The notes under the pieces were generated by a model that made no database searches, was not told where the DNA came from, and was given only the letters and a program-made list of their open reading frames with translations. From the IMG/VR virus record IMGVR_UViG_3300009528_000013, positions 53,771 through 117,770 of that record: a stretch of DNA of 64,000 nt; one strand, given 5' to 3'. Positions 12,690 to 33,045 of this stretch are shown here, one piece after another (position 1 is the first letter of the stretch; every line of letters begins with the position of its first letter). This DNA is from a virus. Position numbers and translations under genes: made by a program.

Positions 12690-15600
12690 ATGCCCGATCC
12701 GCAGGGTCTCGAAGCGACAGGAATAGCGCTTGGAACGCTTGCTATCACTTTACTGGCCCGAACGAAAGCTTTTCGGGATCAGATGGCTAAAGCGTTAAAT
12801 GCGCTGAAGAAGTTCAACGCCGAAGCTTCGAAACAGAAAGCGGCTTTCGCTGGAATGGCGAAAGCCGTTAGTGCATCGGTACGAGAGACAACGAGTGCGG
12901 TCACTGCCGGAACGAAGCAAACTCAGAGCGCAATGTCTGCGGTTAGCAAGCAGTACAAAACTTCCTCGGATCAGGCGCAAGCTTCTGGCAGGAAGACTCG
13001 CACCTCGGTTCAACAAACAGCCAGTACGATGGATAAGGCTGGAAAGCAGATGATATCCCGGGGCAAACAACAACTGGGCGCGATCATCTCATTTCAGGAG
13101 GGGGTCGCAAAGTTTATTAAATTGAACGTGAGATGGTTTGTGGTTTGGCGAAGTTTCTGGTTTTTGTGGTCGAAATTGCAAGATGCCTTAGAGAATATCA
13201 ATGTGCTGATGCATGAAACCTCATTGGCTCTTCGAACTGGTGCGGATGCCTTGAGTAACGAGGTCGAACTGCTGGTTAAACGGAATGCTCTAACCCGGGA
13301 AGCGATCCGGTTCACCGCGCAGCATACAAAAAGTCTCCGGGATTATATCAAGTCATTCTACTATCTGACGACCGCCGGCCTAGCTTGGAACGTTGCACAA
13401 GAGACGATTGATACCACGATGGAGACTGCCATCGCGCTCGATGAAGATGCCATTCAAACAACTCGAACGCTGACTTCGTTGTATAATGTCTTCGGAAAGA
13501 CGCTGACCACTGCTCGGACGCCAGTTGCGAAGATGCAGAAGATTTCGGCGATCCTAACCGCCACTTTTAGGCAACAAGACATTGAAATGGCGGATTACAA
13601 CAAGGCAATGACTTACGTCGGCGCTTTAAGTAAGACTGCCGGAGTTTCGTTAGAGGTTTTAGTTGCTTCGCTTGGAGTCTTAGGAACGCACTTTGTTAAA
13701 AGCTCGAAGGGTGGGACTGCTTTAGCTCGTACTTTCGCTCGACTGCTGAGGTATCCGGAGCGCCTTGCAAAAGTCACTGGCTTTGCTTTTGATCCGTCTA
13801 GGCCTCTGCAATTTGAACAAGCGGTGAGGTTGATTGGCCAGGAGCTTCGCAAGTCGTCTTCAGATACTGATGAATTTGCGGTCAGTACTCAGAAAGCTGC
13901 TGAGATGATTGATCTCTTGGGTTTACGTGGGATTCGAGTGATTACACTGGCTGAGAACTTTGAGAAGCTGGCCGAACAGATTCGGATAAACAGAGAAGCA
14001 ACTTATGATCTGGTCGAATCGATGGTTGCGCTGGTCGAATCCGACCCCTCCGCACAATTAAAAATACTCGGCAATGCCGTTTCGATGAACATTACAGCGA
14101 TGGTTCGGGGTGCGATTCAGACCCAAACGTTCTCGGGGCAACTTGCTTCTCTTAACAAGGTTCTTTTAAGAGCCATCGATTTGTCCGAAGATCTCGGTCG
14201 TGCGGTGGGAATGCTGCTAGGTTCTATAGAGAAAATTCCCGTGGCGCTGATTGCTTGGCGCCTGTCCTCTGGAAAAGCAATCGCTCCGACATCGGCGCTC
14301 GGAAAATGGGTTGATAGGCTTGGATTAAGTTTGCTCTTGGTAGGGAGAGCGTTCACTCGGACTAAGGTAAATCAGAGAGTGATCGGTCTTGGAGCGGCAA
14401 TGAAAGGCATTGTTGGGAACTTTACAAAGTTTGTCCCGGCGATTGGCCGAGTATTAGGAAGGCTTGGAAAATTCGCGGGTTGGTTCGGAATAGCAATTGG
14501 TGCGATGGGTGCTTTCGGTGTGGCCTGGGATGCGATAACTGGAAAATTTACGAAGAAGTCTATGCAGTTTGCTTTCGAAGAGGTAGCGATTCAGAAGGGT
14601 TTGCTTTCGAAGATTGCCTCCTTTCTTAGTCTTCGAAATCTTTCCTATCGGATTGCAAATTACAAGTTGATGAAAATGTGGGAGAAGAGAAGGGATGCCT
14701 ATGCAAAGGAGTTGGATAAGGAAGAATTGACTGAGACCGAGCACGCGCAAAGGATGCAGGAATACATGATCCGTACTTGGTCAATTTGGCTTGGAGTCGA
14801 AGAAACGCAACTGAGGAAGAGAATGGGTCTGATTACGGAGGCCGACGAAGAACTGATGGGCGAGCGAGTTCGTATCGAAGGTGAAACTCTACAGGAACTC
14901 CGAAAACTACAACAGTCCGGTTTAGAAAATCAGCTTTACGCTTTAGATCAGCGCATCATGGTCATGAAGGCAAAGGAAGCTGATGCCAGTCTGATCGAAA
15001 CTTATTTTACTACAAAAAGAGAGGCAATCTTTTCAAAGGCTTTGAAGGGACTCAGTGAAAAGTATCGTAAAGCTTGGGATGCAATGCGACAGACTCAGAA
15101 AACCTCGTTAGACAGACAGCTTGAGGATTCTCGGGCGGCAGGATCCGAGCTTGAAAAAATATACGCTCTGAATCTGTTAATCCGGGCTCGAATGCAGTAC
15201 GAAGCAGGAACTGCAGAAGCGGATATAATTTCCGATGCGATGAAAGCGCTGGAAAATGAAACGCTTGAAGGAATGAACGCGATAGAAATGGCTCGGATAC
15301 AAGCAAGGCACTACGGTTTGGATGACCTGTATGAATTGCTTCAGGAGTCGGCGGACAAAGAAAAATTACTTCAGGTCAATAAAGGGATCGCCCTGCTCCA
15401 GATTGAAAAGAAGGCGCTTAAAGAGTTGACAGGTCTTTTGAAGGAGCAGACAAACTTTCGCCACGGGAAATTGATCGCGGGCGGCAAAAAAGACCTGGTA
15501 GCCTTGAAACAGAATTACGAAAAACGGAAGACGGCGGCCGCAGAAGAGGTTGCAGAAATTACTGAATCTAGAGAAGCGAGTCAAAGTGCACAGACGGCTG

Positions 15601-17222
15601 CAACCAAAGCGCATCAAAAGGCATTGACCAAGCTTACCGTACAAAACGAAATTGAACGTTCTGAAATTGAAGCACATTGGGCGAAGAAAAGAGCAGATCT
15701 CCGAGCGAAAAATACCGTCGAAAATTACCGTCAGACTGTCACAGCGTGGCAAAACATTGCGAAAAGAATCGGTGACATTCATCGGAAGCATCTGGATAAT
15801 ATCGAAAAACAGCGCGCGGTGAGTACTGAAAAAGAGATTACCGATGCGGACGAAAGGAAAAAAGTTCTTGAGAAGTTAGACGAGGATGAGGTTGTAAGCA
15901 CGATCTGGCGCGATGTGGCGCTCTATAAGGCAAGGTTTAAGGAAGCTGAGGCCTATTTCAAGTATCTGCTTAGAGTCAAGCAGCACGTAGTCAAGGCACT
16001 TACGGAAGATGACCAGGAGATGGCCGATTCGAGCAGTCGTGCCTGGATAAGTATCATGGCTGGTATGACCGGTGCTTCGGAAGATTACTTGAAACGAATT
16101 GGAACATTTTCAGACATGGTAAAAAGGATATTCAGTAGGCTCTATCAGGATTTGGAAAATGTGATTTCCTCCTCACTTCAGAAGATGATCGGGTTAGAAG
16201 ATGAATACAGTCGAGAATCTCTGGAATTGATTGCGGAAAGAAACGAAGAGCGGAAACAGAGACTCAGAGATGATCTTGAAGAGGGAAAAATCAATCGTGA
16301 ACGATATTACCTCGAACTCGATGAAATGGATCGGAAGTTTACTGAGGAAGTCGAAAATCGGCGCAGGGGCTTCACAAAAAATATGGGTGAACTGTGGAAG
16401 AGCCTACAAAGAACTGCGTTGGCGGAATTTTCTAAACTGATAGTTGGAATCATTGCAGAGAGCATGAAGAAACTGGCGGTCGAGAAGGGGATCACTAAAG
16501 CGGTAGTTTCTGAACAGACGGCACAAGGAGTCTCTAAGCTCTGGAATTGGTTCACAGGGCTCGGCCCGATTGGAATGGTTATCGGTGCGGGTGTCGTCGC
16601 CGGTTTCATTGCAAAAATGACCGGGTTGGTTAAGTTTGCTAAAGGTGGGGTTGTCAAAAAGCGAACCGCTGCTCTCATTGGTGAGGAAGGCCCGGAAGCC
16701 GTGATCCCTTTAGAGAGGAGAAAAGGGAAGCTCGGAGTTTCGGAGCGCGGGCGAGAGATTCTTCAGCCGCTTCTCGGTCTTTTTGCCAAAGGCGGGATCA
16801 TCAAGAAAAAAACGGCTGCTCTCATTGGCGAGGAAGGCCCAGAAGCTGTAATTCCATTGACGCGGAAAGCGGGGAGACTGGGAATTTCGGAACGAGGGCG
16901 AGAGATTCTTCAGCCGCTTCTCGGTCTTGAAGAGACGATTCCATCGCTGCTTCGGTCCGCTGCTCAAACTGAAGGTTTGATTCGATTAAGTCCCGAGGCG
17001 ACTGCTGCTCTTGGTGCAAGATCAAGACCGGCTTCTATGAAAACGGAACAGAAGGTAGATATTAGCGTGACTTTTGAAGGCGATACGATTGACTTTACTG
17101 GTAGCGTTCCGATGATCAACGACATAACCACGATTGACAAAGTTTATGAAGATATTTGGTTGCCTGCGAAGCGGCGCAGGATCGAGCGTTTGAAGGAGAC
17201 GATTGCGGAGGTAATCGAATGA
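12690..17222 (+). CDS. Tape measure protein (TP901-like core)
   Basis: 1510 aa helical protein; MTYVGALSKTAGVSLE...SKGGTAL core; C-terminal FAKGG...GEEGPEAVIPL. Confidence 0.92.
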   Translation: MPDPQGLEATGIALGTLAITLLARTKAFRDQMAKALNALKKFNAEASKQKAAFAGMAKAVSASVRETTSAVTAGTKQTQSAMSAVSKQYKTSSDQAQASGRKTRTSVQQTASTMDKAGKQMISRGKQQLGAIISFQEGVAKFIKLNVRWFVVWRSFWFLWSKLQDALENINVLMHETSLALRTGADALSNEVELLVKRNALTREAIRFTAQHTKSLRDYIKSFYYLTTAGLAWNVAQETIDTTMETAIALDEDAIQTTRTLTSLYNVFGKTLTTARTPVAKMQKISAILTATFRQQDIEMADYNKAMTYVGALSKTAGVSLEVLVASLGVLGTHFVKSSKGGTALARTFARLLRYPERLAKVTGFAFDPSRPLQFEQAVRLIGQELRKSSSDTDEFAVSTQKAAEMIDLLGLRGIRVITLAENFEKLAEQIRINREATYDLVESMVALVESDPSAQLKILGNAVSMNITAMVRGAIQTQTFSGQLASLNKVLLRAIDLSEDLGRAVGMLLGSIEKIPVALIAWRLSSGKAIAPTSALGKWVDRLGLSLLLVGRAFTRTKVNQRVIGLGAAMKGIVGNFTKFVPAIGRVLGRLGKFAGWFGIAIGAMGAFGVAWDAITGKFTKKSMQFAFEEVAIQKGLLSKIASFLSLRNLSYRIANYKLMKMWEKRRDAYAKELDKEELTETEHAQRMQEYMIRTWSIWLGVEETQLRKRMGLITEADEELMGERVRIEGETLQELRKLQQSGLENQLYALDQRIMVMKAKEADASLIETYFTTKREAIFSKALKGLSEKYRKAWDAMRQTQKTSLDRQLEDSRAAGSELEKIYALNLLIRARMQYEAGTAEADIISDAMKALENETLEGMNAIEMARIQARHYGLDDLYELLQESADKEKLLQVNKGIALLQIEKKALKELTGLLKEQTNFRHGKLIAGGKKDLVALKQNYEKRKTAAAEEVAEITESREASQSAQTAATKAHQKALTKLTVQNEIERSEIEAHWAKKRADLRAKNTVENYRQTVTAWQNIAKRIGDIHRKHLDNIEKQRAVSTEKEITDADERKKVLEKLDEDEVVSTIWRDVALYKARFKEAEAYFKYLLRVKQHVVKALTEDDQEMADSSSRAWISIMAGMTGASEDYLKRIGTFSDMVKRIFSRLYQDLENVISSSLQKMIGLEDEYSRESLELIAERNEERKQRLRDDLEEGKINRERYYLELDEMDRKFTEEVENRRRGFTKNMGELWKSLQRTALAEFSKLIVGIIAESMKKLAVEKGITKAVVSEQTAQGVSKLWNWFTGLGPIGMVIGAGVVAGFIAKMTGLVKFAKGGVVKKRTAALIGEEGPEAVIPLERRKGKLGVSERGREILQPLLGLFAKGGIIKKKTAALIGEEGPEAVIPLTRKAGRLGISERGREILQPLLGLEETIPSLLRSAAQTEGLIRLSPEATAALGARSRPASMKTEQKVDISVTFEGDTIDFTGSVPMINDITTIDKVYEDIWLPAKRRRIERLKETIAEVIE
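16635..16928 (+). repeat. In-frame 147-bp (49-aa) tandem duplication in the tape measure C-terminus
   Basis: FAKGGVVKKRTAALIGEEGPEAVIPLERRKGKLGVSERGREILQPLLGL followed by FAKGGIIKKKTAALIGEEGPEAVIPLTRKAGRLGISERGREILQPLLGL. Confidence 0.9.
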
Positions 17223-27586: not shown

Positions 27587-28555
27587 ATGCCGCGTACAAG
27601 GGATGTCCCGGATTCCAGAACTATGTCTGAAGAGATTCAACTTTTCAATGCTGGTTTCAGAACCGGAAAAGGAAAGCAGTCCGCAGTTCTGGTGAAACGA
27701 TTTCGGGGTCTTGGCGATGTCTTGCAGGTTTTACCTGCTTTGAAGGCATTGAAGGGAAAGTACGGACCGAAGACGAAACTGGTCTTCGGGACTTCACCAA
27801 TCTTCTTTCCGTTGCTTCGACGATTCGATTTCATCGACCGTTTGGTGAATGAAAAGCAGGCCGAGGTGAAAGGACGATACGACCTGGTAGTCGATCTCCA
27901 GAACAAAGTTGATTTTCTTCCAATCTGCTGCGAAGCACCGAGGCAAGATCTCTTTGCGAGATTACTGGAGCTAAATCCTCAATGTTACTGTCCGCGGTTC
28001 GACTTTCCGATTTTGAAGAGCGAAATTGTAAAGGCAAGAACAATTCTGCAAAGGGCAGGTTGGCGAGGTGAAAAGTTGTTCGGTTTACACCTGATGGCAT
28101 ATTCCGCTATTCGAACCTGGCCCGTGGAACGCAATCTTGAATTGGTTGAGCGGTTATCGGACCGAGAGGGATGGAAGATTTTGATTTTGGAGAGTCATGC
28201 AGTCCGAGAGCAATTTCGGAAATTCGATCACGTAATTGTGCCTGACAAGACCGCCTTGATCGATCTGTTGGGGTTGCTCTCGTTTTGTGAGTATCTCGTT
28301 TGTCCAGATTCGGGCATTATGCACCTGGCAGGCCTTCTCCAAATTCCTTCGGTCGCCTTATTCGGACCGATCCCACCGGAGTTTCGGATCGGGTACTATC
28401 CCAAAACTACCGGTCTCAGTTTAAGAGTTGACTGCAATCCATGTTGGGACTGGCAGACGCATGCTTGTCATAAGCGGCCTCATTATCGCCAGTGTCTCAA
28501 GAAGATCACCGTTGAAATGGTGATTAACACATTGGAGGATATTGGATGTTTCTGA
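27587..28555 (+). CDS. GT9-family glycosyltransferase (heptosyltransferase-like)
   Basis: RFRGLGDVL...DLVVDLQ...RTWP...LVCPDSGIMHLAGLLQIPSVALFGP. Confidence 0.9.
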   Translation: MPRTRDVPDSRTMSEEIQLFNAGFRTGKGKQSAVLVKRFRGLGDVLQVLPALKALKGKYGPKTKLVFGTSPIFFPLLRRFDFIDRLVNEKQAEVKGRYDLVVDLQNKVDFLPICCEAPRQDLFARLLELNPQCYCPRFDFPILKSEIVKARTILQRAGWRGEKLFGLHLMAYSAIRTWPVERNLELVERLSDREGWKILILESHAVREQFRKFDHVIVPDKTALIDLLGLLSFCEYLVCPDSGIMHLAGLLQIPSVALFGPIPPEFRIGYYPKTTGLSLRVDCNPCWDWQTHACHKRPHYRQCLKKITVEMVINTLEDIGCF

Positions 28556-29541
28556 CAGCTCGAGTACTGTTCCTGAACGAAGAGGACTATATCTGGTACG
28601 TTCTAAAGTCGATGTACGATGCTGTCGATGCAATTGTGATCGTCGAAGGATGTATCGGAGAGTACGGAAGGATTGAGGGTTTTTATTCCAAATCCGGACT
28701 CTCGATAGATCGTAGCTCCGAGGAGATTGAACGATTCATCGCCAACGACGATCCGGATGGAAAGGTTTGGAATTACAAATACGGTTTTGCGAAAAACTAC
28801 GCGGAATTGGCAAACCATGCAGTGGATCTTTTTCCACGAGAGACCACTCATTTCCTCAACGTAGATGCGGATGAATGTTACAAGGCGTTGGACATTTTGC
28901 GAGTTCGGCAGATGTTCTCGGATCATCCGAGATTGTGTGGCGTTGCTGTGGATCGGATCCATTTTTATCTGGACTTCTGGACTCGCCGGATTTCAAAGAA
29001 AATGGGCAAATTGGAACCGACTGGCGGAACGATGTTCAGAAAGTTCTATCCAGGAGAGTACTATCCCGAGAAAAGCGCTGAACACAATCCTTACTTCGAG
29101 GGCGAACCTCTGATAAATTGGTGGCTACCTTGGATTGCTCAAGATGACATCGAAACAGGAATCAAAGATGCACAGGAACAAGGGCTCGATGGAATTACAT
29201 TGCGAAAGCGGGTAATTCCACAGTATCATTACGGGTGGGTTCGGAAACGTGAAAAGATGATCGAGCGGGTTCTTCAGACGTATCGCAGATCTGATGCGTA
29301 TTCCGGGCTGAATGTTCGGGCTGAATCTTCGGATCAGGAGCTAACCGAGTTCATCGAAACGTATAATCCGATCTGGACGGGGATCTTGCCCGATGAAGAT
29401 GTTCTTCAAAAATTTCCTCCATCGAAGGTCAATCGGATCCGATGCGACCAAATCTTGTGGGAGGCAGTGGGAGAGCATCCGCTTCCAATGAAAGATCATC
29501 CCTTCTTCGGCATGCAGAGGAGGGACTTCGGATGGCTTTGA
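28546..29541 (+). CDS. GT-A-fold glycosyltransferase, paralogue 1 of 4
   Basis: LNEEDYIWYVLKSMYDAVDAIVIVEG; DxD motif NVDADE; HYGWVR. Confidence 0.8.
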   Translation: MFLTARVLFLNEEDYIWYVLKSMYDAVDAIVIVEGCIGEYGRIEGFYSKSGLSIDRSSEEIERFIANDDPDGKVWNYKYGFAKNYAELANHAVDLFPRETTHFLNVDADECYKALDILRVRQMFSDHPRLCGVAVDRIHFYLDFWTRRISKKMGKLEPTGGTMFRKFYPGEYYPEKSAEHNPYFEGEPLINWWLPWIAQDDIETGIKDAQEQGLDGITLRKRVIPQYHYGWVRKREKMIERVLQTYRRSDAYSGLNVRAESSDQELTEFIETYNPIWTGILPDEDVLQKFPPSKVNRIRCDQILWEAVGEHPLPMKDHPFFGMQRRDFGWL

Positions 29542-30533
29542 AACTTACAGCATTGATGATTGTAATAAATGAAGAGGATTGGGTCTGGTGGTCGCTGAGA
29601 TCGATCTACGATGTAGTGGATCATATCGTCATAGTGGAAGGTGTGGCTAAAGATAAATGGAAGGAATTTGGTTCTTTCGATCGGTTTGGATTGTCACTTG
29701 ATAATACGGAGGGAGAGATTGAGAGGTTTATCGAAGAATACGATTCGGAAGGTAAGATTAAGTATATCCAGGCTGGATTCCAGCCGACGATTGGAACGCT
29801 GAGAGAGCTTGCTTTACGGGAGTGCCCGAAGGATACGGATTATATTTTAGTGGCAGATGCGGATCATCTGTATGATGAGTCGCAACTTCAGCAGGTTAAG
29901 AGTCTCTGTGAACAGTATCCAAACATTCGAGTCGTCTATTCCGATCAATTGATCTTCTTTCTGGATATGCACCATGTTCTCCAGATCAATGAAGAATACA
30001 AGCGGCCGTATGGTCATCATTTGGCGTGTCTCTTCTACCGATACGATGAGCGATTGAGATATAAGGGGGAGATTTCTTTTTTCGATAACCAGTTTGAACC
30101 GGAGGGCTGGTTGCATCCGATCCTCGAGGTTCGCCCCGATCAGTTGGAAGGAACGAAAGATGATGTCGCAGTATATCCGCCGATGTTTCAGTTCTGGCAT
30201 TTTGGATGGGTTGGGCGTAGAATGGCGATAGAGGCGCATCTGCTGAAGACGACTTGGTCGAGAGTGCTCAGGTTGCAATGGCTTCTGAAACACGATCCAG
30301 AGAAAGTCACGGATACGGACCGAAACTATTGGATGCCATTTATAGATATGAGTGCCGAGGAGATCTTGGATTATCACCGATTGTATCACAAGATCTGGAC
30401 AGGTATTTTCGATGACAAAGTTGGAGAGCGAGTTGTTCCGTATTTAGGTAAGTATCCGATGGATCAGATGCTTCGCAGTCATCCATTTTTTGGAAAGAGT
30501 AAGCATTGGTTTGGACTGGAAGAAGGACTATAA
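29532..30533 (+). CDS. GT-A-fold glycosyltransferase, paralogue 2 of 4
   Basis: INEEDWVWWSLRSIYDVVDHIVIVEG; VADADH; HFGW. Confidence 0.8.
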   Translation: MALKLTALMIVINEEDWVWWSLRSIYDVVDHIVIVEGVAKDKWKEFGSFDRFGLSLDNTEGEIERFIEEYDSEGKIKYIQAGFQPTIGTLRELALRECPKDTDYILVADADHLYDESQLQQVKSLCEQYPNIRVVYSDQLIFFLDMHHVLQINEEYKRPYGHHLACLFYRYDERLRYKGEISFFDNQFEPEGWLHPILEVRPDQLEGTKDDVAVYPPMFQFWHFGWVGRRMAIEAHLLKTTWSRVLRLQWLLKHDPEKVTDTDRNYWMPFIDMSAEEILDYHRLYHKIWTGIFDDKVGERVVPYLGKYPMDQMLRSHPFFGKSKHWFGLEEGL

Positions 30534-30539
30534 AGGAAA

Positions 30540-30649
30540 GTTTAAGAGCGCTATCCATCAAAATAAGGATTGAAATAAGAGTTCGTATCCCGCTGTCGAT
30601 TACATCGCAGTAGTTTAAGAACGCTATCCATTAAAACAAGGATTGAAAC
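30540..30649 (+). CRISPR. Cas-less CRISPR mini-array: repeat (30540-30576), spacer (30577-30612), repeat (30613-30649)
   Basis: R1 GTTTAAGAGCGCTATCCATCAAAATAAGGATTGAAAT and R2 GTTTAAGAACGCTATCCATTAAAACAAGGATTGAAAC (37 bp, 4 mismatches); ATCC/GGAT stem kept in both; 3' ATTGAAA(C/T) handle typical of Cas6-processed type I/III repeats; 36-nt spacer. Confidence 0.88.
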
Positions 30650-30681
30650 ATCGTTCACTGGCAGCATCAGGAGATGATATA

Positions 30682-31677
30682 GTGAAAATTGGTTGTCACA
30701 TGCTTACTCTCAATGACCAGCCTTATGTTTACTGGGCCTTAAAATCATCATATCCGGCAGTCGATTACATCGCCGTTGTTGAGGGTGCGATCACGCACGA
30801 TGTTTTCCATAATAAGTACGACCACGTTCCTGCAACAAGTGAGGGGCTATCGTTGGATAATACTGGCGAGGAAGTCCAAAGGTTCATTGCCAATGACGAT
30901 CCCGAAGGGAAGGTGCATTATGAACAAGTTGGCTTTGTGCACAGTTGGGAGGATCTTCGGAACAAAGCGCACTCGATGTTGCCCGAGGATACCGACATCG
31001 AACTCATTCAGGATGGGGATTGTCTCTTTAAGCCAAGAAATATTCTGAAGGCAAAAAAAGTCTTAAAGACATATCCCCAAGTTTATGAAGTGGCGGAATA
31101 CTGTTGGTCATTTATCTGGGACTTCCGGCACGTCCTACATACTGGAATAGAACGAAAGGATTATTGGCGTTGGTGTTTTTTCAGGTATAACCCGACGATG
31201 TATTTTGAAAGAGAACGAACAATTTGGTTCGGTGACGGGAGTACCAGTGAACGAACCAAGATTGACTGGATTGATTTTTTGCGTCTTCGTGAATATGAGT
31301 ACGGAGATCAGAAATACATTGTTTACAGTCCCGACTTGCTGGACGTATTCCACTTTGGAAATGTCCAGTTGAAGGAGCGAATGGAAGTTCAGCTCATGCG
31401 GAAGTTTTTCGCTCCACAGACGATGGAGAAGAACCGTCTCGTACTTCCTGATCGGCGACGGGAGACGCTGATGGACTGGCTGAGGATGTACCACAAATTC
31501 TATACCAAGGTCTTAGATACCGATGTTGAACATGTGGATGAGTTCAAGGGATCGTATCCTCTCGATGGGCTGATTCAGAAACATCCTTATTTCGATAAAC
31601 CGGAAGAGTGGTTCAGACACGAGGACCCCGAGGGTGATCAGAGGTCTCCTTTCTACGATTTGAAATGGTGGGACTGA
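30682..31677 (+). CDS. GT-A-fold glycosyltransferase, paralogue 3 of 4 (carries the spacer-like site)
   Basis: GGAG SD and GTG at 30682; LNDQPYVYWALKSSYPAVDYIAVVEG; IQDGDC; HFGN. Confidence 0.8.
   Translation: MKIGCHMLTLNDQPYVYWALKSSYPAVDYIAVVEGAITHDVFHNKYDHVPATSEGLSLDNTGEEVQRFIANDDPEGKVHYEQVGFVHSWEDLRNKAHSMLPEDTDIELIQDGDCLFKPRNILKAKKVLKTYPQVYEVAEYCWSFIWDFRHVLHTGIERKDYWRWCFFRYNPTMYFERERTIWFGDGSTSERTKIDWIDFLRLREYEYGDQKYIVYSPDLLDVFHFGNVQLKERMEVQLMRKFFAPQTMEKNRLVLPDRRRETLMDWLRMYHKFYTKVLDTDVEHVDEFKGSYPLDGLIQKHPYFDKPEEWFRHEDPEGDQRSPFYDLKWWD
30742..30777 (+). other. Synonymously diverged protospacer-like site matching the mini-array spacer
   Basis: AAATCATCATATCCGGCAGTCGATTACATCGCCGTT versus spacer AAGAGTTCGTATCCCGCTGTCGATTACATCGCAGTA: 27/36 identical; both encode KSSYPAVDYIAV; 5' flank TTA. 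Confidence 0.9.
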
Positions 31678-31697
31678 ATTGTTGAAGAGGTACCCGC

Positions 31698-31904
31698 ATG
31701 TCGAAAGATCTGGGAGTAAGTGATCGAGCGAAGTCGATATTAGATATTCAAAAGAAAGTCTTGCGGGACTTGAATCGTTTAAGTAAACTGGTCGAAGTAT
31801 TAAGCGAAGAGGAGCTTCAAGAAGTCGAAACTGAAATGCAGGAATTTCTTCGAGAGGCGCAAGTAAGACTCTGGTCACTGCAAGGAAAGCTCTGGGGTAT
31901 ATAA
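31698..31904 (+). CDS. Small coiled-coil hypothetical protein
   Basis: GAGG SD; fills the operon gap; heptad-like pattern. Confidence 0.6.
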   Translation: MSKDLGVSDRAKSILDIQKKVLRDLNRLSKLVEVLSEEELQEVETEMQEFLREAQVRLWSLQGKLWGI

Positions 31905-31910
31905 TTTTAA

Positions 31911-32414
31911 ATGAGGCTTAAACTGGACATCGGAGGAGGCGCACGGCGGAATGAGTGGGTTGTAATCGATCTTGACCGATCGCTCCGACCCGATGTCGTA
32001 GCCGATGCGCAATTTCTTCCATTTCAGGATACAGTTGCCGATGAACTCTGGGCGTCCCATATTCTGGAGCATTTTCGTCAGGAGTCTTCGATTGTTATCC
32101 TTCAAGAGTGGAATCGTGTACTGAAGGCAGAAGGCAAAATTACGGTCTATGTTCCCAATGCTCTTGAGGCCTTCCATCGTTGGACTCATGGAGAATGTGA
32201 GTACGAGTGGCTTAACATAGTGATTTTTGGATATGATCCCGATGCCAGTCCCTTTATGGCGCACAAATGTATGTTCTGGCGAGGGTCCCTAAGAAATTTG
32301 TTGAATCGAGCAGATTTTGTATCTCTCGAATATCTCGTAGCGCGAGGCGAAGCAAGGGGAACGTGGGAAGAATTCGGATACAGAGGAGTTAAGAGCAGAG
32401 AAAGGACATACTGA
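31911..32414 (+). CDS. Class I SAM-dependent methyltransferase (small-molecule/glycan type)
   Basis: LDIGGG, DVVADAQFLPF, ASHILEH. Confidence 0.85.
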   Translation: MRLKLDIGGGARRNEWVVIDLDRSLRPDVVADAQFLPFQDTVADELWASHILEHFRQESSIVILQEWNRVLKAEGKITVYVPNALEAFHRWTHGECEYEWLNIVIFGYDPDASPFMAHKCMFWRGSLRNLLNRADFVSLEYLVARGEARGTWEEFGYRGVKSRERTY

Positions 32415-32415
32415 A

Positions 32416-33045
32416 ATGGTTCAGCGAATACTGGCGCTGAGTCCACATACCGACGATTGCGAATTCGGTTGTGGTGGTAGTCTGGCTCGATTTCTCGCTG
32501 AAGATAAAGAAGTCTTCTATGTGGCTTTCTCATCTGCCGAGAAATCTGTTCCACCCGAGTTGCCAAAAGGGATTCTCCGAGAGGAAGTTAAAAAGGCAAC
32601 CGCTGCGCTTGGGATTACAAGAGAGAATCTGATTCTTTTCGATTACGAAGTCCGGGATTTCCCTGCTCATCGTCAAAGTATTCTCGAAGATATGATCGAA
32701 CTGAGAGACGTAATCGAACCGGATTTGGTCTTTCTGCCCTCGGCAGATGATACACATCAGGATCATCAGGTTATTGCAGCCGAAGGATTCCGCGCCTTCA
32801 AGAAATCAACTCTTCTTGGATACGAAATTCCCTGGAACAACTTATCCTTCAGGACAGAATGTTTCATCTTTCTGGAGGAGCAATTCATCGAGTTGAAGAT
32901 CCGAGCGTTGAAATGCTACTTCTCACAGTTGGGAAGGGATTACATCAATGAAGATTTTATCCGGAGTCTCGTTCGCGCACGAGGTGGTCAGATCGGGACT
33001 CAATACGCGGAGGCCTTCAATGCAATTCACTGGATTATCCGATAG
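32416..33045 (+). CDS. PIG-L/LmbE-family deacetylase
   Basis: SPHTDDCEFGCGG and HQDH metal-binding motifs. Confidence 0.9.
   Translation: MVQRILALSPHTDDCEFGCGGSLARFLAEDKEVFYVAFSSAEKSVPPELPKGILREEVKKATAALGITRENLILFDYEVRDFPAHRQSILEDMIELRDVIEPDLVFLPSADDTHQDHQVIAAEGFRAFKKSTLLGYEIPWNNLSFRTECFIFLEEQFIELKIRALKCYFSQLGRDYINEDFIRSLVRARGGQIGTQYAEAFNAIHWIIR

Follow-up and report, generated by a model that had tools for sequence, protein, structure and literature searches.

A cas-less, leaderless mini-CRISPR array of a tailed phage carries a synonymous variant of the adjoining GT2-like gene and may act in competition between related phages

The window analysed here is the 3' 64 kb of the 117,770-bp IMG/VR virus record IMGVR_UViG_3300009528_000013, whose completeness is estimated at 87%. 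A tape-measure gene at 12690-17222 of the window indicated that the record is a tailed phage. A repeat-spacer-repeat unit of 110 nt sits between two paralogous GT2-like genes, P0002 and P0001. The features of the locus are given below in window coordinates; L003 is a relative from a metagenome that carries the same array.

29442..30533, plus strand: upstream paralogous GT2-like gene P0002, 30% identical to P0001
30527..30539, plus strand: left flank of the cassette (GGACTATAAAGGA..), conserved in the alignment of the window with L003
30540..30576, plus strand: CRISPR repeat 1 (R1), 37 nt, 3' end ATTGAAAT; Rfam RF01320 CRISPR-DR7, 37.8 bits
30577..30612, plus strand: single spacer, 36 nt, frame 1 reading KSSYPAVDYIAV; 34/36 nt identical to the L003 spacer
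30613..30649, plus strand: CRISPR repeat 2 (R2), 37 nt, 3' end ATTGAAAC; Rfam RF01320 CRISPR-DR7, 50.5 bits
30650..30681, plus strand: conserved trailer with the ribosome-binding site (GGAG) of P0001, about 90% identical to L003
30682..31677, plus strand: GT2-like gene P0001, 331 aa by translation, GTG start; the guide presumably targets its homologue in another phage
30739..30741, plus strand: TTA, read from the sequence as the 5' flank of the protospacer-like site (candidate PAM position for a type I effector)
30742..30777, plus strand: resident protospacer-like site, P0001 codons 21-32, 27/36 nt identical to the spacer

Both repeats scored above the Rfam gathering threshold of CRISPR-DR7 (37 bits) on the plus strand, R1 being slightly degenerate in this phage, and they were the only full copies of the repeat at three or fewer mismatches in the whole virus record. 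Searches of the 117.8-kb record (87% complete) with the Cas6, Cas4 and Cas1 families gave no match, and a Cas3 family search returned a sole sub-threshold match of 12.7 bits, to a generic helicase. Thus, the single-spacer CRISPR unit without cas genes that had been proposed from the sequence is real. No open reading frame runs through the 110-bp unit, as R1 has stops in the spacer frame and the list of open reading frames shows none, so the unit encodes no site-specific nuclease of its own. The array begins 6 nt past the P0002 stop codon, and a promoter search at the array found nothing above background; it therefore has no leader and is presumably transcribed along with the surrounding operon. 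The left flank at 30527-30539 gives P0002 its final codons and stop, and in L003 it follows a different gene. In a folding test R1 and R2 were essentially unstructured, with z-scores near 0, and a hairpin structure was rejected as a feature of the repeats.

The array lies inside a co-directional phage glycosylation cluster (window 27587-33045) downstream of the tail genes. Besides paralogous GT2-like genes, of which there are at least two, the cluster contains a GT9 heptosyltransferase-like gene, a methyltransferase and a PIG-L deacetylase; next to the GT2-like paralogues stands a third ORF, equal to them in size, whose L003 counterpart has the same N-terminal motif. The record also holds a second cas-less mini-array of the same repeat class, on the minus strand about 36.8 kb before the window start (G000:C1:16804-16943), with a partial first repeat, an intact middle one and a degenerate last one. 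Its two spacers, of 34 and 33 nt, matched nothing in the phage's own genome at the nucleotide or peptide level.

The single spacer of the array resembles a site in the gene next to it. The protospacer-like site starts 92 bp after the end of R2 and shares 27 of its 36 nt with the spacer; spacer positions 3, 4, 5, 6, 9, 15, 18, 33 and 36 are mismatched, so that five of the nine mismatches lie within the first 9 nt, at the PAM-proximal end, and positions 19-32 (GTCGATTACATCGC) form 14 identical consecutive nucleotides. The sequence-only reading had reported the end of R2, the position of the site, the spacing, the five of nine mismatches in the first 9 nt, the run of 14 identical nucleotides, the TTA flank and a guide sense to the mRNA, and all of these were confirmed. 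With the array read on the plus strand, the spacer runs sense to the P0001 mRNA. Read in frame, it encodes exactly residues 21-32 of the P0001 protein: all nine mismatches are synonymous and are spread over seven differing codons, including a switch of serine codon family (AGT versus TCA). A chance match was rejected, as the next-best match of the spacer in the 117.8-kb genome was 22/36 and none of 300,000 simulated random sets of nine substitutions kept the peptide. Since the differences are all synonymous and the match is beyond chance, we infer that the spacer is a piece, of canonical length, of a diverged homologue of P0001.

P0001 has 11 other homologues (57-81% identity), all from metagenomes, and several of them encode the same 12 residues. 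The spacer peptide is among others encoded by P0005, P0006 and P0010, indicating that diverged alleles encoding it exist. Relatives of P0001 were found neither in IMG/VR, by a single-protein search and an alignment search, nor among GenBank phages by DNA or protein. A metagenome scan yielded three loci, of which L003 and L004 were usable and the third was a distant relative at 23%; nucleotide comparisons of the site thus cover two relatives. The homologous site in L003 and L004 matched the spacer at 22-28 of 36 nt, and there was no exact spacer match in IMG/VR, so neither source yielded a target allele matching the spacer.

L003 encodes a P0001 homologue with 77% protein identity and has the array in the same position, directly upstream of the gene. 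L004, whose homologue is 69% identical, has no array, and its two paralogues overlap by ATGA. The site has the 5' flank TTA in L003 and CTT in L004. In both carriers the resident site differs from the spacer, by nine mismatches in this phage and ten in L003, both sets including positions 3-6 and 9. This supports the view that the resident site would be protected from the guide by mismatches concentrated at the PAM-proximal end.

It had been proposed from the sequence that the resident target was recoded, and thereby immunised, against the guide. The comparison with the two relatives did not support this. An array-less relative was expected to have a different seed, and L004 instead shares the resident seed (AAATCATC); the K-S-S codons at the site are AAA TCA TCA in the window, AAA TCA TCT in L003 and AAA TCA TCC in L004, against AAG AGT TCG in the spacer. 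The predicted peak of synonymous divergence at the site was also absent. Between the window and L003, 6 of the 12 codons were changed at the site, against a gene mean of 0.43, and 32% of the 12-codon windows of P0001 were as high or higher; divergence at the site was likewise unremarkable in the L004 comparisons. Later recoding of the resident site was rejected on these two grounds. Because the seed is common to the window, L003 and the array-less L004, the resident sequence is the ordinary and probably ancestral state, and the allele that donated the spacer was already mismatched in the seed at acquisition.

The cassette has diverged far less than its surroundings. The array was 96% identical between the window and L003, and the flanking genes were 73-79% identical. 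L003 has one additional nucleotide in R1, two changes in the spacer, both at third-codon positions, and one change in R2, which amounts to 4 differences over 110 nt and about 9 over 155 nt; so few cassette differences have a probability of ~2e-7 at the divergence rate of P0001, and a lower one still when synonymous sites are the reference. Identity was 92-100% over 30550-30657 and 67-83% from the start codon through the target site; the rest of P0001, at 79% nucleotide identity, is at the same level as this region. The stretch of high identity between the two carriers covers 30527-30681 only. It stops at the P0001 start codon, short of the site, and this one carrier pair argues against a recent co-conversion of array and site. 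The most economical reading of these alignments is that this phage and L003 inherited the array vertically from their common ancestor, with purifying selection on repeats and spacer alike, although the cassette alone may have been transferred recently between the carriers.

At L003:4592-5839, three small genes lie between the paralogue and the cassette, in a 1.37-kb block that is absent in the window. They encode 82 aa, 198 aa (SIS-like, read by eye from the translation) and 156 aa (CX5R phosphatase-like). The 13-15 nt to the left of R1 are conserved in the window and L003 despite the different left neighbours, suggesting that the array borders an indel-prone spot.

The 3' core of the repeat was present in two bacterial MAGs. 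One, labelled uncultured delta proteobacterium, has 187 copies of the repeat core in arrays with 34-38-nt spacers, a range that includes the 36 nt of the phage spacer; its repeats match the phage repeat at 33/37 nt, the 3' 25 nt being identical. One of its arrays is directly downstream of genes for Cas8b/Csh1, Cas7/Csh2, Cas3 and Cas4 (type I-B) and Csm1-Csm6 (type III-A). In this locus (L023 and L025, G001:C34:431106-458000), the type I-B genes come first, the type III-A csm genes second and an array of about 82 repeats last, all on one strand, and a single array appears to serve both effector types. Elsewhere, the MAG has another type I operon. When 167 spacers of the MAG were compared with the phage and 33 viral loci, short matches at chance level were all that was found, giving no host link and no derivable PAM. 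Since none of its spacers matches the phage beyond chance, the MAG serves as an example of the system class and is not a shown host; prophage copies were absent from 401 genomes of its order. Type III targeting of the P0001 transcript was rejected, because a guide that is sense to the mRNA is unusable against it. A DNA-targeting type I-B effector is the plausible user of the guide.

Repeats of this class also occur singly or in other settings. In the delta proteobacterium MAG, solitary copies are found at about 10840-10880 of L025 (G001:C34), just upstream of the type I-B cas operon, and at L007:5207-5243 (G001:C30), next to a transposase-like gene; these copies might regulate cas expression in the manner of crRNA-like RNAs. 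A contig of 6.2 kb from a Latescibacterota MAG starts with a five-repeat array of the same class whose repeats differ in the 5' part (L006:1-360), followed by an RNA-ligase-like gene (read by eye from the translation), and this contig could itself be viral. In addition, the 3' 23-24 nt of the repeat class (ATCCAYYAAAAYAAGGATTGAAAC) were found in 30 unrelated IMG/VR contigs (L026-L055), so phages exploiting this CRISPR class are common. Most of the 30 carry solitary repeats with unrelated 5' halves, which are candidates for RNA anti-CRISPRs or half-arrays directed at one widespread CRISPR class, and a few carry mini-arrays. The mini-arrays with the same core in L028 and L051 (mutually identical), L049 and L052 had no near-match in their own neighbourhoods.

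We consider it likely, on balance, that the array turns a host type I-B system against related phages with a particular allele of the neighbouring GT2-like gene. The array itself is probably one of the virus-borne mini-CRISPRs, here without cas genes or leader, that related viruses employ against one another. What we infer is that the array is expressed and processed, which type of effector uses it, that the target allele exists, and why selection favoured the adjacency. The array would be transcribed within the long plus-strand late/glycosylation operon; host Cas6 would cut the repeats, and the crRNA would be loaded into a host effector, for which type I-B Cascade-Cas3 is the likeliest candidate given the sense orientation of the guide. 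This complex would then attack the DNA of co-infecting related phages with a matching GT2-like allele (AAG AGT TCG ...). The carrier's own P0001 would escape because of its nine synonymous differences from the guide, five of them in the first 9 nt, which would have been present already when the spacer was acquired. The array would have come from the common ancestor with L003 and have since been held almost unchanged by selection, and the closeness of guide and resistant allele would be a linkage by which 'weapon' and 'immunity' stay together through recombination between related phages.

The bona fide plus-strand repeats, the canonical spacer, the exact peptide match and the cas-less record tip the balance towards this competition reading. 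Also in its favour are the conservation of the cassette relative to L003, the absence of the array from L004, the encoding of the spacer peptide by several homologues, the second mini-array, the occurrence of the repeat class beside I-B/III-A genes in the MAG, and the pattern known from the literature. Against it stand the lack of a matching protospacer, of a MAG spacer match and of an own leader or promoter, as well as a spacer that stayed near constant over ~21% nucleotide divergence, versus the rapid turnover reported for the viruses SPV1 and SPV2.

The same geometry could arise from a guide-RNA homing or poison-antidote drive, in which host Cas cuts a sensitive allele and repair copies the array together with the resistant allele. 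Homing would spread the 110-bp unit faster than Mendelian inheritance, and it extends the competition reading rather than excluding it. It is consistent with the distance of 92 bp between guide and resistant allele. Type I-E Cas3 degrades DNA toward the PAM-proximal side, and type I-B Cas3 might do the same; the array lies on that side of the site, and gap repair would cross its position if Cas3 resects there. The left neighbour of the cassette also differs between the carriers (a 1.37-kb, three-gene indel), indicating a recombination-active spot, and Medvedeva et al. (2019; PMC6858448) called the proximity of targets and arrays unexplained. However, the carriers show no co-conversion tract, their identity being 67-83% between the start codon and the end of the site; the array-less L004 has the resident seed as well, and the site shows no synonymous peak; no sensitive allele was found; and passive selection for linkage of guide and allele gives the same geometry without active copying. 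We therefore regard homing as unlikely, and correspondingly doubt that the array, with the resistant allele beside it, makes up a selfish module without any protein, which would be a naturally occurring homing element based on guide RNA alone. A full-text literature search found no proposal of such mini-arrays as homing elements.

Three further explanations were weighed. The unit could be an RNA anti-CRISPR or decoy whose repeats soak up host Cas6 and Cas7 and blunt immunity, the spacer being irrelevant. The repeat core in 30 IMG/VR contigs, mostly as solitary repeats, the two such units in this phage and the Racrs known for many CRISPR types (PMC10651486) are in line with this, but a Racr is a solitary repeat, whereas here two full repeats 73 nt apart enclose a canonical spacer; moreover, that spacer is as conserved as the repeats (34/36) and has an exact coding relation to a phage gene, neither of which a decoy needs. 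We judge it quite improbable. An inactive relic without present function, left by an ancient recombination with a host array or by one acquisition event, would account for the absence of a leader, a promoter and a discovered target, and for the slight degeneracy of R1 (37.8 bits, with a 1-nt insertion in L003). Decay would be expected of a neutral relic, yet the non-coding cassette is 94-96% conserved while surrounding synonymous sites diverged in 43% of codons; a relic also seems quite improbable to us. CreA, crlRNA and Cracr RNAs guide Cascade binding without cutting, and a crRNA-like RNA from the array might likewise guide Cascade to the phage's own GT gene or to a host promoter. A guide beside a partially matching site recalls CreTA-type modules, and viral crlRNAs are known (bioRxiv 10.1101/2024.10.29.618823). 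Nevertheless, the complementarity here is PAM-distal, with a seed broken at positions 3-6 and 9, the opposite of regulatory crlRNAs; the site lies within a coding region and not a promoter, and no match to the spacer turned up in the cas loci of the delta proteobacterium MAG. Self-regulation is thus very improbable, and it was rejected because the seed is broken.

The sequence-only reading knew of no description of this exact arrangement, whereas its class is already in the literature (Medvedeva et al., 2019; PMC6858448, citing Faure et al., 2019). The Saccharolobus portogloboviruses SPV1 and SPV2 bear mini-CRISPR arrays with spacers against close relatives, and self-targeting is prevented by point mutations or deletions in the orthologous loci of the carriers (Medvedeva et al., 2019; PMC6858448). 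The array of this phage shares with them one or two spacers, no cas genes, a target (here a presumed one) near the array and a mutated orthologous site in the carrier. Their spacers are directed at related viruses; in this phage such a target is presumed. Their repeats are of the host type; the phage repeats match those of the nearest bacterial arrays at 33/37 nt. The SPV arrays also have promoter-bearing leaders, rapid spacer turnover and matching targets that were found and tested (PMC6858448), while the present array is in a bacterial phage, is leaderless, has a spacer conserved over ~21% nucleotide divergence and had no matching target among those searched. Faure et al. (2019), as cited in PMC6858448, described leaderless phage mini-arrays directed at the adjacent genes of close viral relatives, and a review (PMC11656645) treats viral mini-arrays against adjacent genes of relatives as an established class. 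As far as that citation describes the phage and prophage mini-arrays of Faure et al., they share with ours a leaderless repeat-spacer-repeat structure and a spacer whose counterpart is the adjoining gene in relatives, not the copy in the carrier. Compared with that description, our array differs in that the match is known via the carrier's own diverged copy only and in that the differences are purely synonymous.

Phage mimics of CRISPR repeats that exploit host Cas proteins, namely Racrs (PMC10651486) and Cracrs (bioRxiv 10.1101/2024.10.29.618823), are comparable in that respect. Racrs lack a spacer, whereas the array has a full-length one from phage coding sequence; the short spacer-like parts of Cracrs have their match, at the seed, in host cas or toxin promoters, whereas the match of the array is PAM-distal and in a coding region. 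The array also invites comparison with the homing genes of other phages. Free-standing homing endonuclease genes of T4-like phages are known for intronless homing and marker exclusion. What they would share with the array is the proposed logic only, that is, cutting the neighbouring gene of a competitor and co-converting a resistant allele. Unlike them, the array encodes no nuclease, would need host Cas for cutting and shows no co-conversion tract between the two carriers; it may thus be said to resemble homing elements in idea, not in membership.

A guide beside a variant gene is an arrangement already known, and the locus alone stays within the class of virus-borne mini-arrays. It provides a clean example from a bacterial phage, in which the guide of a mini-array is a purely synonymous variant of the adjoining gene. 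It also bears on the question of why viral guides adjoin their targets, through passive linkage of weapon and immunity or through active homing. Homing, if true, would explain why the targets of mini-arrays adjoin the arrays, the proximity called unexplained in PMC6858448: Cas3 resection toward the array side would lead to gap repair that copies the array and the resistant allele into the competitor. What is unusual about this locus is the near constancy of one guide amid genes that have diverged by about a fifth. On the aligned sequences, this constancy suggests that selection has long acted on one specific guide, rather than that spacers turned over rapidly.
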